The notes: generated from the letters alone by a model not told the origin. A stretch of DNA of 64,000 nucleotides from a virus (IMGVR_UViG_3300035670_000035:32001-96000); one strand, 5' to 3'. Counted from the first letter of the stretch, positions 7,196 through 32,086 are shown. Program-made: numbers and translations.

Positions 7196-7211
7196 TAAGG
7201 AGAAATAAATA

Positions 7212-7517
7212 ATGAGTGAAAAACAAAATAATGAATGGGCTAAAAGAGATATTGGAGCCCTATGGAAAAAAGAAGGAAAAAGTCAAAAATTTCTTTCTGG
7301 ATATATTAAAGATGAAACTGGTATGCAAACAGAGGTAGTTATTTTTGCTAATAAGTATAAGCAAGATAATCCTAAAGCTCCAGACTATAGAATATATCTT
7401 TCTACAAAAACAGAACCCGCAACAAAATCTGAAGTAAAAGCTGTAGCAAAAAATACAGTTAAACCTTCTGTAAAGAAAGTAGTTGAAGTAGCACAAGAAG
7501 AAGAAGATCTATTGTGA
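7212..7517 (+). CDS. Small phage protein, DUF736-like
   Basis: IGALWKK..FLSGYI..VVIFANKYK..NPKAPDYRIY pattern with acidic tail; AGGAG RBS upstream. Confidence 0.55.
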   Translation: MSEKQNNEWAKRDIGALWKKEGKSQKFLSGYIKDETGMQTEVVIFANKYKQDNPKAPDYRIYLSTKTEPATKSEVKAVAKNTVKPSVKKVVEVAQEEEDLL

Positions 7518-8608
7518 AGTTAGCTCTTCAGCTACCAGTAAATTCTGTAAGTTTTGGTCAAATTTCGACCATTCTTCTTAGAGAGTTTTTCTCTCAAAAG
7601 AAAATAAATACATCGTTATTTTTAATAGGTAATAATATTGATTTATCTTCTCAGAAGAACATAACTCAGGAATTTGTTGATTGGTTGAATAGTCAATTAA
7701 AAGATACTCTAGCTACTCATAAAAGAACAGATAATGTATTTAAATTGTGGCATTTAAATGGATCATTTGAAAGTATTTCAAATAATCAAACGTTACTTTC
7801 TTTCTATGAATTAGATTCTCCAACAAGAGAAGAAATTAATATTGCAAGGAATCAAAAAAACTTAATTTTTACATCAACATATACCGCGGATGTATTTAAA
7901 CAAAGTGGTTGTGATAATGTAAAATTTGTGCCACTTCCTTTTGATAAATATAATTTTAATGTTACTAATAAAAACTATCACACTGATGATAGGATTGTTT
8001 TTAATCTTTGTGGTAAACTAGAAAAAAGAAAACATCATAAAAAAGTAATAAGAGCATGGGCTAAAAAATATGGAAATAATTCTAAATATTTCTTACAATG
8101 TGCAATATATAATCCATTTATAAAACCAGAAGATCAGCAAAAACTTATTTTTGATATGTTAGAGGGAAATAATTATTTTAATATATCATTTTTAGGTCAA
8201 ATGCAGAAAAATGAATTGTATAATGATTATCTAAATAGTTCAAATATCATAATCGGAATGAGTGGTGGTGAAGGTTGGGGTTTACCAGAATTTCAATCCG
8301 TTGCTTTAGGAAAATATGGAGTTATTTTAAATGCTCATGCGTACAAAGACTGGGCAAATAAAGATAATTCTATATTAGTAAATCCATCTGGTAAGATAGA
8401 AGCATATGATAATATGTTCTTTCAAAAAGGATCAATTTTTAATCAAGGTAATATTTTTGATTTTAATGAAGATGATTTTATTTCTGCTTGTGAAATTGCT
8501 TGTGAAAAGGTGAGATTAAATAAGATTAATCAAAGTGGGTTGAAATTGCAAGAAAAATTTACAACAGAAAAGTTCATTAGTGATGTACTAAATATAGTAA
8601 ACGAATAA
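7514..8608 (+). CDS. GT4-like glycosyltransferase
   Basis: CGKLEKRKHH, SGGEGWGLPEFQSVALGK. Confidence 0.85.
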   Translation: MKLALQLPVNSVSFGQISTILLREFFSQKKINTSLFLIGNNIDLSSQKNITQEFVDWLNSQLKDTLATHKRTDNVFKLWHLNGSFESISNNQTLLSFYELDSPTREEINIARNQKNLIFTSTYTADVFKQSGCDNVKFVPLPFDKYNFNVTNKNYHTDDRIVFNLCGKLEKRKHHKKVIRAWAKKYGNNSKYFLQCAIYNPFIKPEDQQKLIFDMLEGNNYFNISFLGQMQKNELYNDYLNSSNIIIGMSGGEGWGLPEFQSVALGKYGVILNAHAYKDWANKDNSILVNPSGKIEAYDNMFFQKGSIFNQGNIFDFNEDDFISACEIACEKVRLNKINQSGLKLQEKFTTEKFISDVLNIVNE

Positions 8609-8609
8609 A

Positions 8610-8957
8610 ATGCCAGAATATCTCTACGAACATCCTAAAAATGGTAAAGTTATAAGTATAATCCAAAGTATTCACGACAAACATGAATATGTAGATGAGT
8701 CTGGTTTAAAATGGAATAGGGTATTTACTGCTCCAGAATTGAATACTGAAGGAACATTAAAAGCTGATTGTACTTCTCAACAATTTAGTGAGTATACTGG
8801 AAAAAAGAAAGGTACAATTGGAGATTTATTTGACAGAAGCGCAGAGCTTTCAGAAAAAAGAAAAAAAATTCTTGGTAAAGATCCTCTAAAAGAAAAATAT
8901 TTTAAAAGTTGGAGCAAGAAAAGAAAAGGCAAAAGACATCCTTTAGATAGAGATTAA
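8610..8957 (+). CDS. FmdB-like protein lacking the zinc-ribbon cysteines
   Basis: MPEYLYEHPKNG..ISIIQSI..WNRVFTAP mirrors MPxYxYxCxxCG...RxxSxP. Confidence 0.5.
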   Translation: MPEYLYEHPKNGKVISIIQSIHDKHEYVDESGLKWNRVFTAPELNTEGTLKADCTSQQFSEYTGKKKGTIGDLFDRSAELSEKRKKILGKDPLKEKYFKSWSKKRKGKRHPLDRD

Positions 8958-9469
8958 TACCAAACTTCATTGTGTATTCTTCTTAATACTTTTATCCAAT
9001 CTTTTAAATGATACGAAACTTCATCTTTCTGAGCAACTTCAAAACCATTCTTGGCTATATTATAATAAACAGTTTCGGATGGATACGATCTTCTTATTTT
9101 TTCTAAACTTTTATAAAAAAATCCTAAAAATACAAGAACAGATTTAGCTGTATCTTCGTTATGTTCTAAAGTAAAAAAATATTTATTTTGTAAAGGCGTT
9201 TCTATTAAATCGTAAAATTTTGATCCTACTGCTTCTGATATATATTCTTTTTCTTCAAATGAACATTTTATATCTTTACTATATTTAATTATGGTAAGTT
9301 CTGCAAATACTGGAAAGCTAATATCTACAATTCCATTAATATCTTCTTCTGATATTTTATTTAAAATTTCTGGTAAACAATCTGGATCTTGTATAAGTAA
9401 GAAGGTTTTCTCTGGCGATAAACCTAATTTTTTTGCGAAAAAATCTATATCTCTTTCCGAAACCCTCAC
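8954..9469 (-). CDS. Hypothetical protein
   Basis: 171-aa ORF downstream of nrdAB on the same strand. Confidence 0.6.
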   Translation of the reverse strand: MRVSERDIDFFAKKLGLSPEKTFLLIQDPDCLPEILNKISEEDINGIVDISFPVFAELTIIKYSKDIKCSFEEKEYISEAVGSKFYDLIETPLQNKYFFTLEHNEDTAKSVLVFLGFFYKSLEKIRRSYPSETVYYNIAKNGFEVAQKDEVSYHLKDWIKVLRRIHNEVWY

Positions 9470-9483
9470 ATTAGTTATTACAA

Positions 9484-9822
9484 CTAATTTTTATTTTTAT
9501 TCATTAAATATTGTTGAATTGTTTCAAAGTTACGATCGAGTTTAGCTTCTAATCTATCAAAATAAGCTTCAAAAGATTCTTTTGTGACATAAGTAGTGCT
9601 TACTTTTAGTGCTAAATCCGCTATCTCTTGCTGATGTTTACGGCTTTCTAATTCTACTTCTTTTCTTAAAGCTATAAAATCACTAAAGGTTTTATCATTT
9701 AAATCTTTAATAAGTCTCTCTTGACGATCAGATATGGAGAATACTCTAGTAAAAAGCCATCCACCAAGAAATGATAGAGCCCCTAGAACAAGGTTAAATA
9801 CTGTTACTATATCTAAATTCAC
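9484..9822 (-). CDS. Membrane-anchored coiled-coil protein
   Basis: N-terminal TM helix (VFNLVLGALSFLGGWLF) followed by heptad-like helix; GTG start. Confidence 0.6.
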   Translation of the reverse strand: MNLDIVTVFNLVLGALSFLGGWLFTRVFSISDRQERLIKDLNDKTFSDFIALRKEVELESRKHQQEIADLALKVSTTYVTKESFEAYFDRLEAKLDRNFETIQQYLMNKNKN

Positions 9823-9830
9823 ACATATAT

Positions 9831-9836
9831 TTACAC
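9831..9836 (-). promoter_or_regulatory. GTGTAA motif (candidate phage late promoter)
   Basis: GTGTAAATATA on the minus strand, 8 nt upstream of the start at 9822. Confidence 0.55.
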
Positions 9837-9851
9837 TTTAAATATTAGATA

Positions 9852-20335: not shown

Positions 20336-21658
20336 ATGGACTCTAAACTAATAAAGATTTTATCTGATATTTCAGAATATCTATCAGAGAAAAAGCTAAA
20401 TAAAGTTTGGGAAGCTGGAAAAGATTGGGTACAATATGCTGGACCACACTTCTCAAATGAAGAATATCTTTCTGCGATAGAAAGTCTTTTAAACGGCTGG
20501 CTAGTTCTTGGTGAGAAAGGTATATCTTTCGAAAATCAATTTCCAAAACTCTTAAATAAAGAATATGGAATATTGACAAATAGCGGAAGTAGTTCTAATT
20601 TAATTATGATGTCAGCTATGACATCTAAAAGATTATATAATTTTCCTAAGAACACAAAAGTAATTACTCCAATAGCAGGATTTCCAACAACTATAAATCC
20701 TATATTTCAAGTTGGTTTTATTCCAGCTTTTGTAGACATTGATTTAGATACTCTTAATCTTAATTTAGATCAAGTAGAAGAAGAGGCCAAAAAAGGTGCA
20801 AAAATCATAACCTTTGCTCATGTTCTTGGTAATCCTCCAAATATGCGAAGACTACAAGAAATTATCAAACAATATAACTTAATTCTTTTAGAAGATTGTT
20901 GTGACGCTTTAGGATCAACATTTGATAATAAACCTCTTGGAAGTTTTGGTGAATTTGCAAGTTGCTCTTTTTATCCTGCCCATCATATGACAATGGGAGA
21001 AGGTGGATTTGTCGCTTGTAATACACATCAACAAGAAATAGTCGCAAGAAGTTTTAGAGAATGGGGACGAGGATGTTATTGCGTAGGTAAAAAAGCTAAT
21101 CTATTAAAGAATGGAACTTGTAAAAGTAGATTTTCTAATTGGCTTCCTTCTTTACCAAATGAAGTTTTTGATCATAAATATGTTTATGATGAAATAGGTT
21201 ATAACTTGAAGCCTATTGAGTTACAAGCCGCTATAGGATTGATTCAAATGAATAAATTGCCAGAGATCCATACAAGAAGAAAATTAAATCATTCTAGACT
21301 TACTAATATTTTTTATAAATTCAAAGAACACTTCATATTACCACGAGCAACTGATTGGGCAGACCCAAGTTGGTTTGCATTTGCTTTAACTATTAAAGAC
21401 AACGCTCCTTTTAAAAGAAAAGATATAGTAAATTTTATTGAAGATAGAAAAATACAAACAAGACCTTATTTTGCTGGTAATATAATGTTACAACCAGCAT
21501 ACTCTGGAATGATTAATCATGAAGAAGTCATAAATAAATATCCAATAGCAAGAAAAGTAACAACAGATACATTTTTTCTTGGTACAAGTCCAGTAATAAC
21601 AAACGAGCAACTAGATTATGTAGAGGAAGTCGTAAATGACTTTTTTAAAACAATATGA
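20336..21658 (+). CDS. rfbH: NDP-4-keto-6-deoxyglucose 3-dehydrase (RfbH/DdhC E1, DegT family)
   Basis: TNSGSSSNL, EDCCDALG, SFYPAHHMTMGEGG (His in place of the PLP Lys), WGRGCYC..C [2Fe-2S] motif, GYNLK, FFLG. Confidence 0.92.
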   Translation: MDSKLIKILSDISEYLSEKKLNKVWEAGKDWVQYAGPHFSNEEYLSAIESLLNGWLVLGEKGISFENQFPKLLNKEYGILTNSGSSSNLIMMSAMTSKRLYNFPKNTKVITPIAGFPTTINPIFQVGFIPAFVDIDLDTLNLNLDQVEEEAKKGAKIITFAHVLGNPPNMRRLQEIIKQYNLILLEDCCDALGSTFDNKPLGSFGEFASCSFYPAHHMTMGEGGFVACNTHQQEIVARSFREWGRGCYCVGKKANLLKNGTCKSRFSNWLPSLPNEVFDHKYVYDEIGYNLKPIELQAAIGLIQMNKLPEIHTRRKLNHSRLTNIFYKFKEHFILPRATDWADPSWFAFALTIKDNAPFKRKDIVNFIEDRKIQTRPYFAGNIMLQPAYSGMINHEEVINKYPIARKVTTDTFFLGTSPVITNEQLDYVEEVVNDFFKTI

Positions 21659-22608
21659 AAATCGTCTACATAACTGGATGTCTTGGATTTATAGGTTCAT
21701 ATGTCACTAGACTTTGCCTTGATAAAGGTTGGTATGTAAAAGGTGTTGATAAAATTACTTATGCAGCAAATAAAAATCTCTTAGATGAATTTCAAAAATA
21801 TAAAAACTTTTCTTTTGTACATTGTGATATAAATGATTTAAAATTTTTATATGATTGTGATTATGTTATTAATACCGCAGCTGAAACTCATGTAGGTAAT
21901 TCTATTAGCAATAGTGATGATTTTATTTCATCAAATATTGACGGAGTTCATAATATATTAAATTTAATAAAAAACTATAGACAAGAATCAAATAAAAAAC
22001 CAATACTTTTACATTTTAGCACAGATGAAGTATATGGCGATATAAATAATGGAATTCATCTAGAAACAGATATTTTAAAACCTTCTAATCCATATTCAGC
22101 AACAAAAGCGGCAGCGGACATGTTAATATTAGCGTGGGCAAGAACCTATGGCATAAATTATGTAATAGTTAGACCAACAAATAATTATGGTATAGGACAA
22201 TATGTTGAAAAATTAATACCCAAAACATGCAAATATTTAAATTTAGGAAGAAAAGTTCCACTTCATAATAATGGAACTCCAATAAGAAATTGGCTACATG
22301 CAGAAGATACTGCAAAAGCGATAATTAAAATTATAGAAAAAGGAGTAAAAAACGATATTTATAATATCTCAGGAGGATTTGAGCAATCAAATTTAGAAAC
22401 AGTAAATAAGATAATATCCATTTTTTTAAATAATAAACCATATGATATTAATGATTATGTAGATTTTTCATTTTCTAGAATTGGCCAAGATATAAGATAT
22501 GCTTTAAATGATAATAAATTAAAACAATTAGATTGGAAAGCAGAAGCAGTTTTTGATAACGAGATAAAAAACATTGTTGAATATTATAAAAATATTTTTA
22601 TTTGGTAA
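21655..22608 (+). CDS. rfbB: dTDP-glucose 4,6-dehydratase (extended SDR)
   Basis: ITGCLGFIG, AAETHV, STDEVYG, NPYSATKAAAD, NNYG..Q..EKLIP, RNWLH. Confidence 0.9.
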   Translation: MKIVYITGCLGFIGSYVTRLCLDKGWYVKGVDKITYAANKNLLDEFQKYKNFSFVHCDINDLKFLYDCDYVINTAAETHVGNSISNSDDFISSNIDGVHNILNLIKNYRQESNKKPILLHFSTDEVYGDINNGIHLETDILKPSNPYSATKAAADMLILAWARTYGINYVIVRPTNNYGIGQYVEKLIPKTCKYLNLGRKVPLHNNGTPIRNWLHAEDTAKAIIKIIEKGVKNDIYNISGGFEQSNLETVNKIISIFLNNKPYDINDYVDFSFSRIGQDIRYALNDNKLKQLDWKAEAVFDNEIKNIVEYYKNIFIW

Positions 22609-22612
22609 ATAT

Positions 22613-23692
22613 ATGACGCATAAAATATTTGAAAATCTTTTTGTTCTAGAATTAGCAAACAACCATTGGGGATCTGTAGACAGAGGAAAGCAAATTATTA
22701 AACAATTTGCAAAAATTGTAAAAAATAATAAAATAAAAGCGGCTATTAAATTACAATTTAGAGATGTAGATAATTTTATCCATAAGGATTTTATTGAAAA
22801 TAAAAATAATATAAATTTATCAAAACTTACAAAAAGAGATAGATATATTCAAAAAACTTCAAAAACAAAACTATCTTATAAACAATTTAAACAATTAATT
22901 GAATATATAAGAAAACATGATTGTATACCAATGTCAACACCTTTTGATGAAAAGTCCGTAGACTGGTGTGTAGATTTAAAATTACCAATAATAAAAATTG
23001 CAAGTTCAGATATTAATGACTGGATTCTGATTAAGAAGATTGCCAACACAAAAATACCAGTTATATTATCAACAGGAGGAGCAAATGATAAACAAATAGA
23101 TGATGTTGTTAAATTTTTTATAAATAGAAATATACCTTTGGCTTTAAATCATTGCGTATCAAAATATCCAAGTGAAAATTCAGAATTAGAGTTAGATCAA
23201 ATTGATTATTTAAAAAGAAAATATCCAGAATTAATCATAGGATTATCTACTCATGAATATAAGGATTGGCATTCCTCTATGTTGATATCTTATGCAAAAG
23301 GAGCAAGAACATGGGAACGTCATATAGATATACCATATCCGCCAAACCACGAACAAAAAGAAGTATCATCATATTGTACACTTCCTGCTCAAGCAGATGA
23401 ATGGTTTAAGGCTTTTAATAAAGCAGTAGAAATGTGCGGCACTTCATCAAGAGCTAGAAGAATTATAGATCATAAAGAAAAAAAATATTTAGAATCTTTA
23501 TATCGAGGATTGTATCTTAAACAAAATTTAAAAAAAGGAACAAAGATTAAATTAAGTCATTTGTATTCAGCAATACCATATCAAAAAGAAATACGTCAAA
23601 TAACGTCTAGAGATTATTTTGAAAATGATTTTATATTAAATAAAGATATGAAAAAAGATTCCCCCTTAACAACGGATGATATTTTATCATGA
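22613..23692 (+). CDS. NeuB/SpsE-family PEP-dependent ulosonate synthase with SAF/AFP-like C-terminus
   Basis: LELANNHWG, KLQFR, STPFDEKSV, KIASSD, LSTGG, HCVSKYP, GLSTHE, ERH; start placed at ATG 22613. Confidence 0.9.
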   Translation: MTHKIFENLFVLELANNHWGSVDRGKQIIKQFAKIVKNNKIKAAIKLQFRDVDNFIHKDFIENKNNINLSKLTKRDRYIQKTSKTKLSYKQFKQLIEYIRKHDCIPMSTPFDEKSVDWCVDLKLPIIKIASSDINDWILIKKIANTKIPVILSTGGANDKQIDDVVKFFINRNIPLALNHCVSKYPSENSELELDQIDYLKRKYPELIIGLSTHEYKDWHSSMLISYAKGARTWERHIDIPYPPNHEQKEVSSYCTLPAQADEWFKAFNKAVEMCGTSSRARRIIDHKEKKYLESLYRGLYLKQNLKKGTKIKLSHLYSAIPYQKEIRQITSRDYFENDFILNKDMKKDSPLTTDDILS

Positions 23693-25425
23693 AAAAAATT
23701 TCTGATATAATAATAGATTTTTTAGAAAAAAAAGGGATAAATACTACATTTACTGTTTCTGGTGGGGGATGTATACATCTTATTGATTCATTAAGACGAT
23801 CTAAGATGAAAGTAATATGTACTCATCATGAGCAATCAGCACTTATGGCTAGTGAAGGGTATTATAGAATGTGTAATAATATATCATTAAATTTAGTAAC
23901 AACTGGCCCAGGAGGGACAAACACCCTAACTGGATTATTGGGATTATGGTTAGATAGCATACCATCAATTATAATATCTGGACAAGTACAAACAAGTCAA
24001 TTATCAAAAGGAACAGGATGTCGTCAGATTGGAGATCAAGAATTTGATATTATTAAGATAGTTAAGCCTATGACAAAATACGCCAAAATGATAACAGATG
24101 CTAATTGTATTATAGAAGAATTAGAAAAAGCATATAATTTAGCACTAGATGGAAGACCTGGCCCAGTATGGCTTGATATTCCATTAGATATTCAAGCTAC
24201 TATGATTTCGGAAAAGTTAAGTGAAGAAGAGAATAAAAAAATAAATAAAAAAATAAATTTTAAAAAAATAGAATTATTTAGAAAATTACTAGAAACATCA
24301 AAAAGACCATTATTTATAGTTGGAAATGGAATTAGATTATCAAATACATATAATGATCTAAATAATATTTTATCAAATTTAAAAATACCAGTAGTTACTG
24401 GTCCTCATTCAGGAGTAGATGCAGTTGATAATACTTACGAATACTATGCTGGAAGAATTGGTATATTAGGACAACTTACATCAAATAAGATTGTTCAAGA
24501 GGCAGATTTATTGATAATGCTAGGGACTCGACTATCAATGAAAATGACGGGATATAATATAAAAGACTTTTCCCCCAATTCTAAGAAAATTATGATAGAT
24601 ATAGATAGAAATGAAATAAAAAAACATAAATTTAATATTGATTTAAAACTAGCCTGTGATTTGCGCGATTTTTTTAATAATATAAAAAATATTAAATTTA
24701 ATTTGAATACAAATGAATGGAGAAGTAAAGTAAAAGATTATAGAAATAAGCAAATCTATGTTTATCCCAAACATGCAAATTTAAAAGACTACGCTAGTCT
24801 TTATTATTTAATTAATCAAGCTCCTAATATATTTAAAAATACTCCAATAATAACAAGCAATGGCAGCGCTCATGTTGTGACACTTCAAACTTATCAATTA
24901 AAAAAAGATCAAAGATTATTTACAAACGTTGGTTGTGCTAGTATGGGTTATGGATTACCAGCCGCAATAGGCGCCTGTATTGCGAACAATAATAAACCAG
25001 TAATCTGTATAGAAGGAGATGGAAGTTTAATGATGAATTTACAAGAGATAGAAACAATTATAGGTTATAAATTACCATTAAAATTATTAGTGATTAATAA
25101 TAATGGTTATCTTTCTATTAAGCTAACTCAACAATCATTTTTTGAGGGCAAAGAGTTTGCAAGCGGGCCATCTAATGGAGTGACTATTCCAAATTATGAA
25201 AAAATTGCGAATGCTTTTGGAATTAAATATTTTTCCATAAAAAATAATCAAGAAATAAAAAAGAATTTAATTGAAATGATGGAATTTGATGGGGCGTGTT
25301 TTGTAGAAATATTTACTCACCCAAAAGAAAAACACGAACCAAAAGTAACACATAAGGGAATTGGAATAGATGGAAAAATTATTCCTGGATCTCTAATAGA
25401 CATGCATATTTCGGAAAATTTTTAA
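23689..25425 (+). CDS. TPP-dependent acetolactate synthase-like enzyme (YerE-like)
   Basis: HHEQSALMASEGY, TTGPGGTN, SGQV, GRPGPVWLDIPLD, SMGYGLPAAIGA, GDGSLMMN..NN. Confidence 0.92.
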   Translation: MKKISDIIIDFLEKKGINTTFTVSGGGCIHLIDSLRRSKMKVICTHHEQSALMASEGYYRMCNNISLNLVTTGPGGTNTLTGLLGLWLDSIPSIIISGQVQTSQLSKGTGCRQIGDQEFDIIKIVKPMTKYAKMITDANCIIEELEKAYNLALDGRPGPVWLDIPLDIQATMISEKLSEEENKKINKKINFKKIELFRKLLETSKRPLFIVGNGIRLSNTYNDLNNILSNLKIPVVTGPHSGVDAVDNTYEYYAGRIGILGQLTSNKIVQEADLLIMLGTRLSMKMTGYNIKDFSPNSKKIMIDIDRNEIKKHKFNIDLKLACDLRDFFNNIKNIKFNLNTNEWRSKVKDYRNKQIYVYPKHANLKDYASLYYLINQAPNIFKNTPIITSNGSAHVVTLQTYQLKKDQRLFTNVGCASMGYGLPAAIGACIANNNKPVICIEGDGSLMMNLQEIETIIGYKLPLKLLVINNNGYLSIKLTQQSFFEGKEFASGPSNGVTIPNYEKIANAFGIKYFSIKNNQEIKKNLIEMMEFDGACFVEIFTHPKEKHEPKVTHKGIGIDGKIIPGSLIDMHISENF

Positions 25426-25426
25426 T

Positions 25427-26059
25427 ATGGTAGTATTTTTAACAGGAGGCAGTGGAGGAATTGGCTCAATTATAAGTTCCGTGCTAAAAACCGAAGGGAT
25501 GGAAGTTATTGAGCCAACCTCTAAAGAGCTAGATTTAACAAGTAATATTAATGTATCAAATATAAAAAAAATAGATGCATTTATACATTGCGCAGGAATA
25601 AATAATCTTGCACATCATAAAGATATAAATAGAAACGAATTATTAAATATATTTAATATAAATACTTTCAGTTTTATTGAATTATGCAATAAATTAAATA
25701 TTAATTATGGCGGAAATATTATTGCCATAGGCTCTATATACGCAACTAAAGCTAAAGAAGAAAGAATGCAATATACAATGTCAAAACACGCTCTGTATGG
25801 ATGTATAAAAACTTTAGCTTTAGAAAAAGCAAAAGATTTAATAAAAGTTAATATGATTTCTCCAGGATTTGTTAATACCCTACTAACAAGGAAAAATAAT
25901 ACTAAAGAAAGAATAGATTTTCTAAATTATAATATTCCATTAGGTATGACAAATCCATATGATATAGCTAATCTTTGTGTTTTTTTAATAAAATATAATA
26001 ATTCAATAACTGGCCAAAATATTGAAGTAGATGGAGGCTATTCATTAAAAGGAATATAA
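25427..26059 (+). CDS. Short-chain dehydrogenase/reductase
   Basis: TGGSGGIG, HCAG, IGS, YTMSK, VNMISPG, TGQNIEVDGG. Confidence 0.92.
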   Translation: MVVFLTGGSGGIGSIISSVLKTEGMEVIEPTSKELDLTSNINVSNIKKIDAFIHCAGINNLAHHKDINRNELLNIFNINTFSFIELCNKLNINYGGNIIAIGSIYATKAKEERMQYTMSKHALYGCIKTLALEKAKDLIKVNMISPGFVNTLLTRKNNTKERIDFLNYNIPLGMTNPYDIANLCVFLIKYNNSITGQNIEVDGGYSLKGI

Positions 26060-27093
26060 TGAATACATTCTTAATAAATAATAAAAAATTTATAATAAAT
26101 AATCAAAAAATAAAAGATAGATTATTAATTAAATCTCATCCTAAAGACTATGAAGTAATTTTTGATTCTTTCTTTTCATTATTCTTTTCTTTTAAAGAAG
26201 ACGAAATAGTTCTAATTGATAAAAATATAAGAAAAATATATGATATTAATCATAGTAAATTAATTGAAATAGAAGCCATGGAAGAAAATAAAACTATTGA
26301 AACAGTTCTAAATGTTTGTGAAAAATTATCATCTTTTAATTTTAATAAAGGTAATACATTGATCGTGATTGGTGGAGGAATTCTGCAAGACATTGGGGCT
26401 TTTACAGCAAAAATATATAAAAGAGGAATAAGATGGATATATGTTCCAACTACGCTTCTTTCACAATGCGATAGCTGTATAGGAGGCAAAACGGCATTAA
26501 ATTTTAATAAATATAAAAATCAATTAGCTTTATTTTCTGCCCCAGATAAAGTTATTATTGATACTAATTTTTTGAATACTTTAAGCAATGAAGAGATAAA
26601 ATCTGGATATGGAGAAATTATTAAATTCTTTTTGATCGGTGGAGATTATTATATAAATAATTTTGAAAAATTTGATATTAAAACAAATATTATTCATTCA
26701 TTGAATATCAAAAAAGCAATTATAGAATATGATGAATTTGAAAATGATGAAAGAAAATCGCTAAATTATGGACACTCATTTGGACATGCGATAGAGTCTA
26801 TAACTAATTATAAAATTTGCCATGGCGAAGCAGTAATGCTAGGAATTGAAATTATAAATAAACTTTTTTTAAAATCTTCTCGCATAAGTAAAATTATAAA
26901 TAAATTTACAAATCTAGATAGAATAAAAGATATAAATCTAATAGATTTAATTGAAAGAATAAAAACTGATAAAAAAGTAAATGGAGATATAATAAGCTTA
27001 GTTAGTATTAAAAAATTTGGTGAAACAATTTTCATTAAACAAAAATTAGATAATAGTTTATTAAATAAATTAAATGAAATATTTACTAGTTGA
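26059..27093 (+). CDS. 3-dehydroquinate synthase-like sugar-phosphate cyclase
   Basis: GGGILQD, PTTLLSQCDSCIGGK, KN, GEIIK, LNYGHSFGHAIE, HGEAV (all three Zn ligands present). Confidence 0.9.
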   Translation: MNTFLINNKKFIINNQKIKDRLLIKSHPKDYEVIFDSFFSLFFSFKEDEIVLIDKNIRKIYDINHSKLIEIEAMEENKTIETVLNVCEKLSSFNFNKGNTLIVIGGGILQDIGAFTAKIYKRGIRWIYVPTTLLSQCDSCIGGKTALNFNKYKNQLALFSAPDKVIIDTNFLNTLSNEEIKSGYGEIIKFFLIGGDYYINNFEKFDIKTNIIHSLNIKKAIIEYDEFENDERKSLNYGHSFGHAIESITNYKICHGEAVMLGIEIINKLFLKSSRISKIINKFTNLDRIKDINLIDLIERIKTDKKVNGDIISLVSIKKFGETIFIKQKLDNSLLNKLNEIFTS

Positions 27094-28051
27094 TTTTGGC
27101 GCATCGTACATAAAAAATATCGTTTACGATACAGATTCAAAAAATATATTATATTCTAATACAATAGATTCTCCATTTAAAACAAGTAAAAGAATATCTA
27201 GATCAAAATTAAAAAATATTTTAATAAATATTATAGAAAAAACATCTAATATAGATGGAATAATAATATGTACAATCATCGGAGGAGGGTGGATTGATGA
27301 CATTTACTATTCTTGGCAATCAGATAATAAAAATGTAAAAGAACATTGTCTAATAAGTGGGCTTTTTATAAATTCAAGAAACTATCATGTACATGCACAT
27401 CATAAATATAATAGCCTAAGTGAAACCCAAGATAATTTAGAAATTTTAGGCAAAATAAAAAATATTCCGATATATAGTTCTCTAGGAGATACAAATTGTG
27501 TTATTAAATCTCTAGATTTAAAAAATAATGAATATATAATTAATATTGGAACAGGTTCTCAAGTCATATATAAAGATAGAGATAATAAGATTAATATAAA
27601 TAAATATATTCCCGCAGGAAGAGCATTACTTGTTTATGATAATTTTTTTAAAACTTTAGGTTTAAATTTTTTTAAAATGTTAAAAACTATAAAACCAGAA
27701 GATGTATACGCCAGCAATCTTAATATTAATTTAAATCTATTCGAACAAGCATTTGATTATGTTAATGGGGGCAGCATTAGTAATATAAATGAAGATAATC
27801 TCACTATTAATAATTTATTAGGATCAATATTACGTTGCTTAGTTTTACAATACAAACAATTTATAAAAGATAAATCAAAAAATACATTAATATTAACAGG
27901 TGGAATACCCAAGAAATTACCAATATTAAAAAAACTTTTTAAATTTTATTATTCAAATTATAAAATTAAAATTATTTTAAATAATATAGAAGATACTCAT
28001 TTAGGTATGATTAGATATTTGGAAGATAAATTAGAAAATGAACAAAGATAG
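27074..28051 (+). CDS. FGGY-family / sedoheptulokinase-like sugar kinase
   Basis: LLVDFGASYIK, LGDTNC, INIGTGSQV, LTGG (actin-like ATPase motifs). Confidence 0.7.
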   Translation: MKYLLVDFGASYIKNIVYDTDSKNILYSNTIDSPFKTSKRISRSKLKNILINIIEKTSNIDGIIICTIIGGGWIDDIYYSWQSDNKNVKEHCLISGLFINSRNYHVHAHHKYNSLSETQDNLEILGKIKNIPIYSSLGDTNCVIKSLDLKNNEYIINIGTGSQVIYKDRDNKININKYIPAGRALLVYDNFFKTLGLNFFKMLKTIKPEDVYASNLNINLNLFEQAFDYVNGGSISNINEDNLTINNLLGSILRCLVLQYKQFIKDKSKNTLILTGGIPKKLPILKKLFKFYYSNYKIKIILNNIEDTHLGMIRYLEDKLENEQR

Positions 28052-28283
28052 AGAAAACGTAATAAAATTATTTGAGATAGGTATATGCGATCAAAGATTC
28101 CCATATGCTTCAACCAAATTATGGCTATCTTATTTTAAAAATATAGATTTATATTGTGCTGATAATTTTTGGGGACATTATCTTGAAGATAAAATTAAAG
28201 ATATTAATAATAATTTTGAATTAATAGAAATGGTATTAGATAAACATAAAATAAATTATTTGGCAGTTTTTAGAAAAAAATGA
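28038..28283 (+). pseudogene. Internally deleted remnant of a class I SAM methyltransferase
   Basis: KLFEIGI...STKLWLSYFKNIDLYCAD matches the N-terminus of LEIGI..GxSLxxW..YF..A.IYGxD methyltransferases, but the ORF is only 81 aa. Confidence 0.5.
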
Positions 28284-29074
28284 ATATATTAATTACTGGA
28301 GGAAATGGATATATAGCTAAATCATTATCAACACATCTCTCACAATTTTTATTTCTACATAAAATTCATAGTATTACTAGATTAGATTTTGATTTAACTG
28401 ATACAGATGCAACTAATTTTTGGTTTAAAGATAAAAAATTTGACATTGTAATTCATACTGCAATTAAAGGTGGCTCAAGATTAAATATTGAAGATGATTC
28501 AGTATTGGATAATAATTTAAAAATGTTTAATAATCTATTGATTAATAAAAATAAATTTAAAAAATTAATATCTTTTGGTTCTGGCGCAGAGATTTGGAAT
28601 CCAGAAACACCATATGGTAAAAGTAAAAAAATAATAAATGAAATTATAGAAAAAGAAACTAATTTTTATAATATAAGAATTTTCGCTGTTTTTGATGAGA
28701 ATGAATTAGATACTAGATTTATAAAAGCTAATATTTTAAGATATACACAAAAAGAACCAATGTTAATACATGCAAATAAAATAATGGATTTCTTTTATAT
28801 GAAAGATCTTTTAAATTTAGTAGATTATTATATTAATAATGAAAATCCACCTAAACAAATAGATTGTTCTTATAAAAATAAAAAAACTCTTTTAAATATA
28901 GCTAATTTTATTAATACTCTTGCTAATTATAAAGTAGATATTAATATAGAAAAAGACGTTATATTACAAGATTATTGTGGAATAAGTAATTTACCTATAG
29001 AGGTTATAGGTTTAGAAAATGGGATTAAAGAAGTATATAATAAATTATTAGAAATATATGATTCTAAAATTTAA
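28280..29074 (+). CDS. NAD-dependent epimerase/dehydratase/reductase (extended SDR)
   Basis: ILITGGNGYIA, FGSGAE, PYGKSK, IRIFAVF. Confidence 0.88.
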   Translation: MNILITGGNGYIAKSLSTHLSQFLFLHKIHSITRLDFDLTDTDATNFWFKDKKFDIVIHTAIKGGSRLNIEDDSVLDNNLKMFNNLLINKNKFKKLISFGSGAEIWNPETPYGKSKKIINEIIEKETNFYNIRIFAVFDENELDTRFIKANILRYTQKEPMLIHANKIMDFFYMKDLLNLVDYYINNENPPKQIDCSYKNKKTLLNIANFINTLANYKVDINIEKDVILQDYCGISNLPIEVIGLENGIKEVYNKLLEIYDSKI

Positions 29075-29083
29075 AATCTCTAA

Positions 29084-30259
29084 ATGAGTAACTCTTTAAA
29101 AGAAACATATTATGGTAAAAAGATAGATACTGCAAATATTCTAAATATAGAAGATGCAGTAAAATTAATAAAAGATAAAAAAGTTGTTATTGTTACTGGA
29201 GTTACTGGTCAAGATGGAAGTCATATGGTTGATTTCTTATTAAAGAATACAGACTATACTATTTTTGGTGGAGTCCGAAGATTAAGTGTTTATAACCATA
29301 AAAATATTAATCATATTAATTCTGATAGATTTCATTTAATTAATTTTGATTTAACAGATTCTCATGCAATTGCAAGAATTGTAGAAAAATTACAACCAGA
29401 TTATTTTATTAATTTTGCAGCTCAAAGTTTTGTAGCAAGCAGTTGGGATTTTGCTAGACAAACTTGGGCAGCAAATTCAACTGCTATTTTAGATATTTTA
29501 GAAGCTATTAGATTATATAAACCCAAGTGTAGACTTTATCAAGCAGGATCTAGTGAAGAATTTGGAAATGTTATTTATGCACCTCAAGATGAAAAACATC
29601 CATTAAGACCAAGAAGCCCATATGGAGCTAGTAAGGCCGCTTCAAGGCAACTAATTAAAGTATATAGAGATTCATACAATCTTTATGCGATACAGGGTTG
29701 GTTGTTTAATCACGAGGGAATAAGAAGAGGAGAAGAATTTGTCACAAGAAAAATTACTAAAAATGTTGCTAGAATATATCATGCATTAAAAAATAATGAA
29801 GAATTTAAACCATTAGAATTAGGAAATTTAGATGCAAAAAGAGATTGGAGTGATTCTGAAGATTTTATTGAGGGAGTTTGGATGATGTTGAATCAGGATA
29901 AATATAATCCTAATTATGATGGAAATCCAAAAGAATATGTTTTCTCTTCAAATGAAACACATACTATTAGAGAGTTTGTAGAAAAAGCATTTAAAATTGC
30001 TGGGATAGAGGGTCATTGGATTTATACAAATGATGGCAGACCAGAAGACGAAGGTTTTTATTTAAAAGATGATAAAGGACAATACAAACTTTTAGTTAAA
30101 ATTAATCCAAAATTTTATCGTCCAGCCGAAGTAGAATTATTATTGGGTAACTCTAATAAAGCAAGAGAAGAGCTTGGATGGAAACCAAAAATTTCATTTG
30201 ACAATCTAGTAGAAAAAATGGTAAAATGGGATGTAGAAAAAAATGATATTATTTTTTAA
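29084..30259 (+). CDS. gmd: GDP-mannose 4,6-dehydratase
   Basis: TGVTGQDG, AAQSFV, QAGSSEEFG, PRSPYGASK, FNHE..RRG..FVTRKI, GNLDAKRDW, RPAEVELLLG. Confidence 0.95.
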   Translation: MSNSLKETYYGKKIDTANILNIEDAVKLIKDKKVVIVTGVTGQDGSHMVDFLLKNTDYTIFGGVRRLSVYNHKNINHINSDRFHLINFDLTDSHAIARIVEKLQPDYFINFAAQSFVASSWDFARQTWAANSTAILDILEAIRLYKPKCRLYQAGSSEEFGNVIYAPQDEKHPLRPRSPYGASKAASRQLIKVYRDSYNLYAIQGWLFNHEGIRRGEEFVTRKITKNVARIYHALKNNEEFKPLELGNLDAKRDWSDSEDFIEGVWMMLNQDKYNPNYDGNPKEYVFSSNETHTIREFVEKAFKIAGIEGHWIYTNDGRPEDEGFYLKDDKGQYKLLVKINPKFYRPAEVELLLGNSNKAREELGWKPKISFDNLVEKMVKWDVEKNDIIF

Positions 30260-31346
30260 TGTATTCATAACAAATAAAAGAATAAGTGGCCCAAATTCCT
30301 GTGATAGATTAGATTTATTTAAATACTGTTTATCAAGTTATTCATGCATAGATGATATAAAAGATGTTGTTATATATTGCGAATTAGATTCAAATTATAA
30401 AAGCAGGGAAATTGAATTAAAAGATTACATATATACCATTTTTAATGGTAAAAATATACAATATTATAATTATAGTCCATGCAATCAAAAACAATGGCAA
30501 ATAGCTTTACAAGATTCAAATATATTAAATTCATCGGAACCAATATTGTATTCTGGTAACGATGATCATATATTTATTGATTATGATTTAATATCAATTC
30601 GTGAAGGAATAAAACTATTAAAAAATGAATCAAATGAACAAATTAATAGTTTTGCAATAAGTCATTGGCCAGAATCTATTTCTTATGCATACCATTATCC
30701 TTTTGTAGATAGAGGAATATTTTGGGAAAGTGAAATTTTAGCGACCACATCGATAGTCATGGTAAATAATACATTTTTTAAACATTTATTTTTTAATTTA
30801 GAAATGGGAGAAATATTTATAAGAAGAACAGATCCAATTTTAACAAATGTTTATCCATATACTGGAAATTTTGCTTTTCCTTCTAAAAAAACACATCCAA
30901 AAGTAAAAACATTTATTCCATTAAAAGGAGAGATAATTAGACATTTTGATTCATATCCTTACTTTGTTCAAATGCCACTTTCAATTTGTCCTCAATTAAA
31001 AATACCAAATGGATTTTTTGAAAATAATATAAAAATAAATTATTGTGGAAAAGTAAAAAGAGACTTTTACAATGTCAATCCATTGGCTGAAAAATATCTT
31101 TTTGAAGATTATACAAATGGAGTAGATGATAAAAAATTATTAGAAGATTTACCGCTATTTTGGAGAAATAAAATTTCAGAGATAGAAGATCATAGCAATG
31201 AATATTCTCGTCAAGATTTAATTGACGCTAGAAATATCAATCATAAAAATTTAATGACAGTGCCGCATAATAGAATTCACGAAGGAGTTCATTATCATGG
31301 ACCCCTTAATTTAGAAGAAAAATATATTAAATTAGGTTATAGATAA
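30243..31346 (+). CDS. Hypothetical protein, possibly GT-A-like
   Basis: Located inside the sugar operon; YSGNDDHIFID resembles a DxD-region motif. Confidence 0.5.
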   Translation: MILFFNVFITNKRISGPNSCDRLDLFKYCLSSYSCIDDIKDVVIYCELDSNYKSREIELKDYIYTIFNGKNIQYYNYSPCNQKQWQIALQDSNILNSSEPILYSGNDDHIFIDYDLISIREGIKLLKNESNEQINSFAISHWPESISYAYHYPFVDRGIFWESEILATTSIVMVNNTFFKHLFFNLEMGEIFIRRTDPILTNVYPYTGNFAFPSKKTHPKVKTFIPLKGEIIRHFDSYPYFVQMPLSICPQLKIPNGFFENNIKINYCGKVKRDFYNVNPLAEKYLFEDYTNGVDDKKLLEDLPLFWRNKISEIEDHSNEYSRQDLIDARNINHKNLMTVPHNRIHEGVHYHGPLNLEEKYIKLGYR

Positions 31347-31360
31347 TTTTAAATTATTAT

Positions 31361-32086
31361 ATGAATATATTAATCCCTATGGCAGGATTAGGAGAAAGAT
31401 TTTCTAAATCTCATCCAAATAAAATTAAACCACTAATAAATGTTTATAATGAACCAATGATACAAAAAGTTCTAAAAAATCTAAATCAACAAGAAGATAT
31501 TAATTTTATTATAATAACATTAAAGATAATATCTGAAAATCAAGAATTTATAAAAATTTTAAAAAATTTAAATATTAAATATACGTTAATAAGTATTGAT
31601 GAAAAAACCGATGGGCCAGCTTGCACATGCTTATTAGCAAAAGAATATATTAAAAACGAACCACTAATTATAATTAATTGCGATCAAATAATTTTAGATT
31701 TTAATTTAAAAAACTTACTTGATTTTAGCAAGTTAAATAATGCGGATGGGGTTATTGGAGTTTTCCATTCAAATTCTAGAAAAAATAGTTATATAAAACT
31801 AGGTGAAGATTTGACCATACAAGAAGTAAAAGAAAAAATCGTTATTAGCAATATAGCTACAAATGGATTACATTTTTGGAAGAACGGAAATGACTTTATA
31901 AGATCAGTAGAAGAGATGATTTCTAAAGATGATAGATATTCAAATGAATTTTATGTTGCGCCAAGTTACAATTATATGATAAAGAATGGCAAAAAGATAC
32001 TACCATATTATTATAATTTACATTATCCTATTGGTATACCAGAGGATCTAATGTATTTTGAAAAATATATATATGAAAATATATAA
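31361..32086 (+). CDS. Sugar-phosphate nucleotidyltransferase
   Basis: ILIPMAGLGERF..KPLI, TDGPACT, IINCD, ATNG, EFYVAP.YN. Confidence 0.88.
   Translation: MNILIPMAGLGERFSKSHPNKIKPLINVYNEPMIQKVLKNLNQQEDINFIIITLKIISENQEFIKILKNLNIKYTLISIDEKTDGPACTCLLAKEYIKNEPLIIINCDQIILDFNLKNLLDFSKLNNADGVIGVFHSNSRKNSYIKLGEDLTIQEVKEKIVISNIATNGLHFWKNGNDFIRSVEEMISKDDRYSNEFYVAPSYNYMIKNGKKILPYYYNLHYPIGIPEDLMYFEKYIYENI

Follow-up and report, generated by a model that had tools for sequence, protein, structure and literature searches.

Positions 22613-28051 of the window, the 64,000-nt stretch of an uncultured 136-kb phage contig that was analyzed here, carry a cassette of five genes, all on the + strand. The initial annotation had described these genes as coupled, with intact catalytic motifs, and both descriptions hold: neighbors overlap by 1-20 nt or stand 1 nt apart, which makes them tightly packed and translationally coupled, and the NeuB-like active-site residues, the SDR N-S-Y-K tetrad, the ThDP GDG...N motif, and 13/13 DHQS active-site positions are all present. 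The cassette is surrounded by a nucleotide-sugar and glycosyltransferase island, and the genes relevant to its function are as follows:

20336-21658, + strand: E1/RfbH-type PMP-dependent NDP-4-keto-6-deoxyhexose 3-dehydrase (NCBIfam RfbH, PDB 3bcx/3bb8, motif)
21655-22608, + strand: NDP-hexose 4,6-dehydratase, RmlB type (TIGR01181 below cut-off; Pfam GDP_Man_Dehyd and Epimerase)
22613-23692, + strand: NeuB-like PEP-dependent condensing enzyme of the 3g8r subfamily, proposed 2-keto-3-deoxy-acid synthase (Pfam NeuB)
23689-25425, + strand: YerE/JanthE-type ThDP carboligase, proposed coupling enzyme (three TPP_enzyme domains; PDB 8rph)
25427-26059, + strand: short classical SDR, 210 aa (adh_short_C2)
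26059-27093, + strand: DHQS-like AroB paralogue, putative NAD/metal-dependent sugar-phosphate phospholyase (DHQ_synthase and DHQS_C)
27074-28051, + strand: putative minimal FGGY-fold sugar kinase, 325 aa (FGGY_N in orthologues, motifs, model)
28038-28283, + strand: relic of a TylF/MycF-type sugar O-methyltransferase, 81 aa (partial alignment to a homologue)
28280-29074, + strand: extended SDR, 264 aa, candidate YerF-like reductase (Pfam Epimerase and RmlD_sub_bind)

Two absences recorded in the initial annotation are also borne out. Besides the DHQS-like gene, no shikimate gene occurs among the ORFs scanned between 13.7 and 40.1 kb, and no match to CMP-ulosonate synthetase (PF02348, CTP_transf_3), that is, to a NeuA-type cytidylyltransferase, rises above threshold anywhere on the 136-kb contig.

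Enzymes of the cassette and its flanks

The NeuB-like gene starts at an ATG at 22613, with an alternative TTG at 22574, and its product matches Pfam NeuB with E=1e-41. Like the NeuB/PseI/LegI synthases, it has the NeuB TIM-barrel domain and keeps the PEP- and metal-binding motifs, and residues E26/N30/H31, K59/Q61, K141/S144, N192/H193, H227, and E248/H250 are invariant across 55 family members. It differs from these synthases in belonging to the 3g8r subfamily (top PDB match 3g8r at 1e-47; true NeuB/PseI entries reach 1e-17), in having no SAF domain detectable by Pfam, and in having no NeuA-type partner. Identity as a NeuB/PseI nonulosonic acid synthase was rejected, as the equivalog scores fall far short (PseI 133 bits for a cut-off of 340; NeuB 118 bits for a cut-off of 400) and CTP_transf_3 is below threshold on the contig.

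For the DHQS-like protein, the best NCBIfam model is TIGR04425, an AroB-related family named "putative sugar phosphate phospholyase (cyclizing)," at 291 bits, under a cut-off of 400 that ten bacterial cassette genomes likewise do not reach. Its score to aroB (TIGR01357) is 237 bits for a cut-off of 305. Across 140 cassette proteins, 11 of the 13 DHQS positions are invariant, with K197 and H275 varying in a minority. We take the 13 positions, in Aspergillus nidulans DHQS numbering, to be R130, D146, K152, N162, E194, K197, K250, R264, N268, H271, H275, H287, and K356, with the roles they have in the A. nidulans DHQS structure; their retention fits a DAHP-like substrate with both a carboxylate and a phosphate. 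EEVS, DDGS, and DOIS (ValA, BtrC) share the superfamily and a nonshikimate role in a specialized pathway, but the window protein is far less similar to them (ValA 90, DOIS 90, and DDGS 80 bits in PDB comparisons) than to DHQS (144 bits). Some of the residues with which DHQS binds its substrate are replaced in these cyclases but all kept in the window protein, and membership in their groups was rejected on both counts.

Comparison with bacterial genomes indicates that the DHQS-like protein is a paralogue distinct from housekeeping AroB, as the initial annotation had supposed. Of five cassette-bearing bacteria tested, four have a further AroB that passes the TIGR01357 cut-off; the housekeeping enzymes score 362-394 bits and the cassette copies, below the cut-off, score 254-272 bits. 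In a tree of DHQS-like proteins and housekeeping AroB, the latter stands apart on a long branch, and the window protein groups with viral sequences in a clade (19 rows, 99% support). AroB of the shikimate pathway was rejected as an identity on this separate paralogy, the subthreshold score, and the glycan-island setting.

The short SDR (adh_short_C2, E=2e-33), whose conserved tetrad is N79-S103-Y116-K120, is a constant partner of the DHQS-like gene, lying within 10 kb of it in 135/157 loci. The last cassette protein, of 325 aa, has no Pfam, NCBIfam, or PDB sequence match of its own. Its full-length bacterial orthologues match FGGY_N (E=1e-11 and 2e-14), and the DxGA, GD, GTGSQ, and GG motifs, which supply the phosphate-1, catalytic Asp, phosphate-2, and adenosine elements of the fold, are invariant in the family. 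An AlphaFold model (pLDDT 91, pTM 0.87) retrieves glycerol and xylulose kinases as best Foldseek matches (probability 1.00, TMq 0.65-0.72). The label of FGGY kinase given initially thus holds, for a putative two-domain ASKHA-fold kinase in minimal form, about 100 residues shorter than the bacterial form of about 430 aa.

All three TPP_enzyme Pfam domains are found in the ThDP enzyme. Its PDB matches are led by 8rph, at 349 bits over the full length, followed by 5ahk at 262 bits; no entry deposited as an acetolactate synthase scores above 238 bits, and every acetolactate synthase equivalog is below cut-off. Entry 8rph is JanthE (PMC12188165). This Janthinobacterium enzyme (also 8rpi and 8rpj) is a ketone-accepting carboligase and the nearest solved relative of the window enzyme, from which it differs by a CDG motif in place of the canonical GDG. 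Members of the YerE-like class, as described in PMC9306805 and PMC12247030, join 2-keto acids to CDP-4-keto-3,6-dideoxyglucose or analogues. YerE-like enzymes can also use cyclic ketones as acceptors. Judged by sequence, the window enzyme is of the YerE/JanthE type, a predicted ketone-accepting, sugar-branching carboligase.

The flanking genes extend this picture to the sugar acceptor. The E1 3-dehydrase exceeds the NCBIfam RfbH equivalog cut-off (454 bits over 423), and its top PDB matches are the E1 dehydrase entries 3bcx/3bb8, at 345 bits. In its motif SFYPAHHMTMGEGG, His replaces the Schiff-base Lys, and the CYC...C cysteine motif is present. This gene lies just upstream of the span first annotated and belongs to the cassette pathway. 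The 4,6-dehydratase scores 293 bits to TIGR01181, under the cut-off of 365, and has homologues of 60-79% identity in related phage loci. Downstream, the 81-aa relic aligns to residues 59-114 and 219-250 of a 250-aa homologue in locus L100, whose family matches the O-methyltransferases 8ia9/3ssm in the PDB. The extended SDR carries a YGKSK motif; as a YerF-like candidate, it may reduce either the branch carbonyl or the sugar. The NDP-sugar branch would be incomplete without the host, because no glucose-1-phosphate cytidylyltransferase (RfbF) was found on the phage contig and no E3 reductase was recognized.

Co-occurrence across loci and the mycobacterial LOS locus

Beyond this phage, the cassette was followed in 93 distinct loci, bacterial and viral, whose flanks are complete; all counts are raw and ignore shared ancestry. 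The cassette genes are co-conserved in many phyla and phages, in keeping with the co-conservation anticipated initially. Neither of the outcomes named at the start as refuting that annotation was observed. Next to the DHQS-like gene stand the short SDR, the ThDP enzyme, and a pyruvate/PEP-condensing enzyme of one of three types that replace one another as near-exclusive alternatives: NeuB-like enzymes (33 of 93 loci), which come with the FGGY-like kinase; HpcH aldolases (23); and DmpG-like aldolases (10). NeuB-like and FGGY-like genes cross-tabulate as 37/2/2/52 over the 93 loci, far above chance if kinship is ignored. Fusion proteins of a DmpG-like aldolase with a DHQS-like domain are also found. 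Together with the 13/13 residues, the fusions and the interchangeable condensing types support the functional link first drawn from the condensing enzyme to the DHQS-like enzyme, and the proposed order, with kinase and NeuB acting before the DHQS-like enzyme, is supported as well. The published erwiniose and caryophyllose clusters obtain the donor keto acid from BphI-like and HpcH-like aldolases; neither aldolase type, HpcH or BphI, occurs in the window, where the NeuB-like enzyme fills that slot.

A second association involves E1, which is present in 45/73 loci with the ThDP enzyme and in 0/20 loci without it. The initial annotation had cast the ThDP enzyme as a tailoring enzyme, a role that is not borne out given this co-travel and the YerE/JanthE relationship. 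The extended SDR shows a similar distribution (48/73 versus 2/20). In loci without the ThDP enzyme, the DHQS-like/SDR pair adjoins a cytidylyltransferase of the KdsB/NeuA family (CMP-ulosonate-synthetase type) in 11/20 cases.

A parallel comes from a Mycobacterium genome with FGGY-like, DHQS-like, SDR, HpcH, ThDP, GT2, and RfbF genes, and with RfbH and the 4,6-dehydratase on the opposite strand. The cassette there adjoins Pks5-like, FadD, MmpL, PapA-like, and PKS genes, and window proteins share 31-37% identity with proteins of this locus. In Mycobacterium marinum, MMAR_2333 (glycosyltransferase), MMAR_2332 (ThDP enzyme), and MMAR_2331 (aldolase) are needed for caryophyllose (Steitz et al. 2022, PMC9306805), and the GT-ThDP-aldolase order published for them is also that of the Mycobacterium locus. 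Judged by gene content, the Mycobacterium cassette is situated in an apparent LOS locus organized like the published caryophyllose locus.

The caryophyllose-type sub-cluster of mycobacterial LOS loci, part of the "unifying scheme for acyl-branched sugars" (PMC9306805), shares with the window a YerE-like ThDP enzyme, E1/RfbH, a 4,6-dehydratase, the short SDR, a DHQS-like paralogue with 13/13 residues, and the FGGY-like kinase; DHQS-like, SDR, and kinase genes are not discussed in the portion of PMC9306805 consulted. The window differs from a caryophyllose-type locus in having a PEP-dependent, NeuB-like donor enzyme rather than an HpcH aldolase and in being phage borne, with a 4,6-dehydratase of RmlB rather than CDP type, no RfbF, a shortened kinase, and a methyltransferase reduced to a relic. 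The caryophyllose side chain is an acyclic 1,3,4,5-tetrahydroxyhexyl group with a CH3 end, and this is the carbon skeleton that decarboxylation of a 3,7-dideoxyheptulosonate should give.

A proposed pathway and its alternatives

The ThDP enzyme is of the YerE/JanthE type and travels with E1, and the product is therefore more likely to be an acyl-branched 3,6-dideoxyhexose. We build on what was observed: the families of the genes, their coupling and co-conservation, the paralogy, the conserved residues, the fusion proteins, and the occurrence of the cassette in the mycobacterial LOS locus. We think it probable that the cassette, E1, the 4,6-dehydratase, and the extended SDR make up one pathway to such a product, a rare surface sugar of the caryophyllose type with a long carbon side chain. 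The NeuB-like enzyme would condense PEP with a small aldose, and the FGGY-like kinase would phosphorylate the terminal carbon, either ahead of the condensation or following it, giving a DAHP-like 3-deoxy-2-ulosonate omega-phosphate. The DHQS-like enzyme may then catalyze the opening half of the DHQS reaction, with NAD-dependent oxidation, beta-elimination of phosphate, and re-reduction, to leave a terminal methyl ketone, which the short SDR would reduce to an omega-deoxy 2-keto acid. With the 4,6-dehydratase and E1 providing an NDP-4-keto-3,6-dideoxyhexose, the ThDP enzyme would decarboxylate this acid and attach it at C4 of that hexose. The extended SDR might reduce the branch carbonyl, and phage glycosyltransferases could transfer the sugar to a glycan of the host or the virion. 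The substrates, the order of the kinase and condensation steps, the noncyclizing outcome, and the biological target are those we infer.

Two known pathways resemble parts of this scheme. DAHP synthase and 3-dehydroquinate synthase, the first two shikimate steps, likewise lead from PEP and an aldose to a 3-deoxy-2-ulosonate phosphate and on to a DHQS-fold enzyme with the full residue set; the window differs in its NeuB-fold condensing enzyme, sub-cut-off DHQS paralogue, lack of shikimate context, and probably open-chain product. Yersiniose A synthesis in Yersinia pseudotuberculosis (YerE/YerF with DdhA-D) also proceeds by E1-type 3-deoxygenation followed by ThDP-dependent C4 branching and reduction, but YerE takes pyruvate to form a C2 branch, without a keto-acid-forming module, DHQS-like enzyme, or kinase.

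The Pfam and automatic names (NeuB, DHQ synthase, TPP enzyme), together with the name "3-dehydroquinate synthase" that homologues bear in their sources, would suggest auxiliary metabolic genes for sialic, pseudaminic, or legionaminic acid, for shikimate and aromatic compounds, and for branched-chain amino acids through acetolactate synthase. We regard this as highly improbable, as the relevant equivalog models are all below cut-off, cassette-bearing bacteria keep a housekeeping AroB separately, neither a CMP-ulosonate synthetase on the contig nor another shikimate gene among the scanned ORFs was found, and the surrounding island is one of nucleotide-sugar and glycosyltransferase genes. Somewhat less remote, though quite unlikely, is the presence of two neighboring but unrelated pathways, in which the 4,6-dehydratase, E1, and extended SDR make an ordinary 3,6-dideoxyhexose of the abequose/paratose type and the other five genes a separate product. 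The bacterial run RfbF-RfbG-RfbH-SDR295 does resemble a complete dideoxyhexose set, and E1 is absent within 10 kb in 28/73 ThDP loci, a point against the acyl-branched sugar as well. Against separate pathways, the ThDP enzyme groups with YerE/JanthE and not with acetolactate synthases, E1 never occurs in loci without it, the dideoxyhexose and keto-acid gene sets are interleaved in several loci (such as L004, L009, and L123), and both halves are joined in the published caryophyllose and erwiniose clusters.

A closer competitor keeps the same assembly line and differs in its DHQS-like step. Should this enzyme close the ring, a dehydroquinate- or quinate-like carbocyclic unit would either offer its ketone to the ThDP enzyme as acceptor or form part of a carbocycle-bearing branched sugar. 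Such an outcome accords with conservation of the DHQS active-site positions, including those for late steps, with true DHQS enzymes as closest solved relatives, with the word "cyclizing" in the nearest NCBIfam model, and with the acceptance of cyclic ketones by YerE-like enzymes. Carbocyclic sugars, for example caryose, occur in bacterial O-antigens. The DHQS enol-pyranose intermediate cyclizes spontaneously in solution, so that a noncyclizing outcome would require the SDR to intercept it or the substrate to have another geometry. Yet the donor site of the ThDP carboligase and the KdsB/NeuA-type cytidylyltransferase each need an intact 2-keto acid, which would be lost on ring closure of the DHQ type, and this makes a carbocycle less favored. 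E1, co-occurring with the ThDP enzyme, already supplies a sugar ketone as acceptor, the mycobacterial cassette lies in a caryophyllose-type LOS locus whose characteristic side chain is acyclic, and no cyclitol-activating gene is seen in the cassette. We consider ring closure unlikely on this balance.

The initial annotation had proposed a carbocyclic or higher-carbon sugar. Its higher-carbon part stands, most plausibly as an acyl-branched 3,6-dideoxyhexose; the carbocycle is disfavored by the downstream need for the 2-keto acid and by the open caryophyllose chain. If ring closure nevertheless proves true, the branched sugar with which phages and many bacteria decorate glycans would be carbocyclic, either quinate-like or bearing a cyclitol, and of a class for which we know of no biosynthetic genes.

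Gene content and coupling of the phage cassette

From their families and arrangement, the five genes and their neighbors most likely encode an acyl-branched sugar pathway carried by a phage. The kind of pathway is known; what is new, if the genes are read correctly, is the NeuB-type donor synthase, the repurposed dehydroquinate synthase (DHQS) paralogue, and the phage setting. The source contig is an IMG/VR virus of 136,131 bases with an estimated completeness of 87%; the window spans its bases 32001-96000, with a G+C content of ~28%. All five genes of the initial annotation are present as described, in reading frame, family, and coupling, within a same-strand gene run at ~18.3-34.1 kb; adjacent cassette genes overlap by 1-20 nt or lie 1 nt apart. 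Two sugar nucleotide genes 5' of them were not in that original set. The genes of the region are as follows.

20336-21658, + strand, RfbH/E1-type 3-dehydrase, 454 bits (cut-off, 423)
21655-22608, + strand, RmlB-type 4,6-dehydratase, directly 5' of the cassette
22613-23692, + strand, NeuB-like enzyme
23689-25425, + strand, ThDP enzyme
25427-26059, + strand, short SDR, 210 aa
26059-27093, + strand, DHQS-like enzyme
27074-28051, + strand, FGGY-like kinase, 325 aa
28038-28283, + strand, relic of a TylF/MycF-type sugar O-methyltransferase, 81 aa, between kinase and extended SDR
28280-29074, + strand, extended SDR
29084-30259, + strand, GMD-like 4,6-dehydratase, 322 bits, under the gmd cut-off of 415
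30243-31346, + strand, 367-aa protein with no Pfam or NCBIfam match

Comparison with the family favors the ATG at 22613 as the start of the NeuB-like gene over a TTG further upstream. The top PDB matches of the E1-type dehydrase are 3bcx and 3bb8, structures of the Yersinia E1 dehydrase, and its Schiff-base Lys is replaced by His (motif SFYPAHHMTMGEGG). The closest solved structure to the ThDP enzyme is 8rph (349 bits), which is JanthE (PMC12188165), followed by 5ahk (262 bits), with acetolactate synthases at 238 bits or less. Phosphonate chemistry involving a PEP mutase was considered and dropped, as the ThDP enzyme is full-length and YerE-type and no PEP mutase was seen. The O-methyltransferase relic matches residues 59-114 and 219-250 of its intact 250-aa counterpart, which occupies the equivalent position in a related phage locus, L100; by comparison, the relic has lost its N terminus and middle. 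The GMD-like dehydratase and the 367-aa protein separate the cassette from a nucleotidyltransferase/RuBisCO-like cassette, and the genes 3' of the cassette include those for RecA-like, DnaB-like, ThyX, primase, and RuBisCO-like proteins. In DNA this AT-rich, scanning for promoters and terminators yielded little information, with 151 sites observed versus 146 expected.

For the kinase itself, Pfam, NCBIfam, and PDB sequence searches gave no match, and its assignment comes from its orthologues and its fold. Bacterial orthologues of ~430 aa match FGGY_N, the ASKHA/FGGY motifs are kept across the family, and the predicted structure of the 325-aa protein (pLDDT 91) has glycerol and xylulose kinases as its best matches. 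Phage members (27074-28051 of the window; loci L082-L101, L103, and L158) span 305-335 aa and have lost one block of ~100 residues, while every nucleotide and catalytic motif is retained in a confidently predicted fold. The phage protein is a minimal FGGY kinase. Related phage cassettes also carry a mini HAD-type phosphatase of ~100 aa with a DIDDT or DIDET start motif (L096-L098 and L158 at ~5.4-6.6 kb; L100 at 6908-7216), and an ordinary 210-aa HAD_2 phosphatase is sometimes found in bacterial cassettes; the window cassette has neither.

Co-conservation and distribution

To survey synteny, homologues of the DHQS-like gene were searched with an alignment query, yielding 80 bacterial or archaeal and 77 viral loci, and open reading frames within 10 kb of the gene were clustered; the alignment was needed, as a single-protein search of the viral contigs returned nothing. 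The short SDR is present in 135 of the 157 loci, the 4,6-dehydratase-type SDR in 128, the ThDP enzyme in 120, RfbH/DegT in 94, the extended SDR in 76, the FGGY-like kinase in 64, and the NeuB-like enzyme in 59. Counted locus by locus, irrespective of kinship, the cassette is co-conserved in this survey of 157 loci from many phyla. A subset was then formed of 93 loci, each with its own DHQS-like sequence and flanked by 7 kb or more on both sides. Of these, again irrespective of kinship, 33 combine the NeuB-like, FGGY-like, ThDP, and SDR genes, 23 contain an HpcH/HpaI aldolase (by Pfam) instead, and in 10 a DmpG/BphI-like (HMGL) aldolase is the alternative. The NeuB-like and FGGY-like genes are closely linked in these same 93 loci, kinship again ignored (both, 37; either one alone, 2 and 2; neither, 52).

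The usual bacterial order is exemplified by Elusimicrobium simillimum: RfbF, RfbG, RfbH, SDR295, SDR224, DHQS-like, FGGY-like, NeuB-like, and ThDP, with a GT2 gene a few genes on, and all three Rfb genes there exceed their equivalog cut-offs. Carriers include Elusimicrobiota, Spirochaetota, Pseudomonadota, Bacillota, Melainabacteria, candidate phyla, one archaeon, mycobacteria, and dozens of uncultured phage contigs; E. simillimum and Brachyspira intermedia are carriers in culture. The cassette is infrequent among sampled genomes (Afipia family, 2 of 151; Actinomycetota, 1 of 401). No cultured phage with the cassette was found in the GenBank phage collection, where megablast with the island gave no match and tblastn with the DHQS-like protein recovered only housekeeping-type aroB (15 records, 27-36% identity); the plasmid collection searched gave just one aroB match.

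A dehydroquinate synthase paralogue and the fate of its product

By profile score, the DHQS-like protein is distinct from housekeeping AroB. Of five genomes bearing the cassette, four have a further gene that reaches 362-394 bits on TIGR01357 (cut-off, 305), whereas the cassette copies stay below it at 254-272 bits. In a midpoint-rooted FastTree phylogeny of cassette and housekeeping proteins, housekeeping AroB sequences occupy a separate long branch, one housekeeping row, L160, being a wrongly chosen open reading frame with a very long branch of its own. The window protein groups with viral contigs in a clade of 19 rows, supported at 99%. Inside this clade also sit L002 and L003, two loci from Bacteroidota metagenome-assembled genomes; they alone among the "bacterial" loci exceed 50% identity to the window protein, and L002 hardly differs from viral contig L088. 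The two loci probably represent prophages, or phage contigs that were binned with the bacterial assemblies.

Similarity of the DHQS-like protein to ValA, DOIS, and DDGS is far weaker than to DHQS. The 13 positions that we take to be the DHQS active site are all kept in the window protein, with a spacing that matches the Aspergillus nidulans enzyme exactly; across 140 cassette proteins, 11 are invariant and 2 vary in a minority, and the mycobacterial copy retains the same 13. In addition, four metagenomic clusters (696-708 aa, among proteins P0125-P0129) fuse a DmpG-like (HMGL) aldolase to the DHQS-like domain, as in P0126, with the aldolase at residues 1-340 and the DHQS-like domain at 369-684, and one 639-aa metagenomic protein joins the DHQS-like domain to an inositol-monophosphatase-family domain. 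The proposal that a condensing enzyme passes its product to the DHQS-like enzyme gains support from the paralogy, the kept residues, and the aldolase fusions, which together suggest a DAHP-like substrate.

Whether that substrate is then closed into a ring is a separate matter, and here the genomic partners are informative. Of the 73 loci with the ThDP enzyme, 45 have an E1-type dehydrase within 10 kb and 48 have an extended SDR; of the 20 loci without it, 0 and 2 do, respectively. Among the 20 loci lacking the ThDP enzyme, 11 have a KdsB/NeuA-family cytidylyltransferase (PF02348), at times cupin fused, and 10 a GmhA-like SIS isomerase. Viral contigs L113-L122, L126, L137-L140, and L147 (at ~8500-12000 in each) represent this context, free of both ThDP enzyme and aldolase; the DHQS-like gene mostly adjoins the short SDR, and the partners are SIS isomerase, cytidylyltransferase, and DegT or class III aminotransferases. 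Such a gene set appears suited to making a modified ulosonic acid activated with CMP.

The donor of a ThDP carboligase must be a 2-keto acid, and a CMP-ulosonate synthetase requires the anomeric center of a 2-ulosonic acid; DHQ-type ring closure converts C2 into a tertiary carbinol. A cyclized product would therefore be usable by neither partner, and we infer that the product of the DHQS-like/SDR pair stays open-chain. Ring closure to a carbocycle, as the initial annotation envisaged in proposing a carbasugar or quinate-like product, is kept as a live alternative because the DHQS intermediate cyclizes readily, the main chemical objection to an open chain; given what the partner enzymes need, we regard it as quite improbable. 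That interpretation is partly supported: the feeding of the DHQS-like enzyme by a condensing enzyme has support, and the carbocycle is disfavored.

With the chain left open, the kinase and NeuB-like enzyme would generate a DAHP-like ulosonate phosphate, on which the DHQS-like enzyme would perform oxidation, phosphate elimination, and re-reduction, with the short SDR reducing the newly formed ketone. The 4,6-dehydratase and E1 would supply an NDP-4-keto-3,6-dideoxyhexose, onto which the ThDP enzyme would graft the decarboxylated chain, and the extended SDR would reduce the branch carbonyl. RfbF is absent from the phage contig and no E3 was recognized in the phage; the phage must therefore use the host's functions or its own nucleotidyltransferase, a weak match at 31361-32086.

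Caryophyllose and the mycobacterial loci

Steitz et al. (2022, PMC9306805) report that the YerE relatives ErwE, MMAR_2332, and MyGE accept gamma-hydroxy 2-keto acids of C4-C8 and that MMAR_2331, 2332, and 2333 mutants lack caryophyllose. They propose that BphI-like ErwI and the aldolase/citrate-lyase-family protein MMAR_2331 supply these donors, which are coupled to CDP-4-keto-3,6-dideoxyglucose before a YerF-like reduction. Caryophyllose is 3,6-dideoxy-4-C-(D-altro-1,3,4,5-tetrahydroxyhexyl)-D-xylo-hexose (PMC5706390). In its carbon skeleton, its three hydroxyls, and its methyl end, decarboxylated 3,7-dideoxyheptulosonate agrees exactly with this branch; the heptulosonate itself corresponds to DAHP that has lost the 7-phosphate oxygen and been reduced at C6. 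More than 200 YerE-like clusters have been surveyed in silico, according to a review (PMC12247030). In the accessible, searchable literature, we found no mention of the DHQS-like, SDR, kinase, and NeuB-like genes of such clusters, and nothing relevant linking dehydroquinate with caryophyllose or LOS.

In a search that started from one PPE-rich genome, the cassette DHQS-like paralogue was found in 6 of 400 genomes of the genus Mycobacterium. Three of the six have contiguous FGGY-like, DHQS-like, SDR, HpcH aldolase, ThDP, GT2, and RfbF genes, with E1 and the 4,6-dehydratase on the opposite strand. In one genome, G847, the next genes encode a Pks5-like PKS, FadD, MmpL, a PapA-like acyltransferase, and a second PKS, the same order as in the M. 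marinum LOS locus (pks5, fadD25, mmpL12, papA4, and pks5_1; MMAR_2340-2344), and the glycosyltransferase-ThDP-aldolase order equals that of MMAR_2333-2331. Window proteins share 37% (E1), 31% (ThDP), 31% (SDR), and 34% (DHQS-like) identity with those of this LOS-type locus.

In another of the three genomes, G607, an NRPS and two MmpL genes adjoin, and the setting looks GPL-like and not like a LOS locus; the neighbors of its cassette (L181/L183) also include an ABC-2 transporter and an AT3-SGNH acyltransferase. Such a setting suggests that branched sugars may also be present on GPL-type lipids.

If our reading is correct, two textbook enzymes serve in roles not reported before: a sialic acid synthase fold would produce a keto acid resembling DAHP, and a dehydroquinate synthase fold would halt halfway, so that a phosphate ester at the chain end becomes a methyl group. 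This would explain the source of the terminal-deoxy polyol side chains in caryophyllose-type sugars, and the wide distribution of the cassette means that many surface glycans may bear such sugars unnoticed. For the phages, it would indicate costly remodeling of host or virion glycans with a very unusual sugar.
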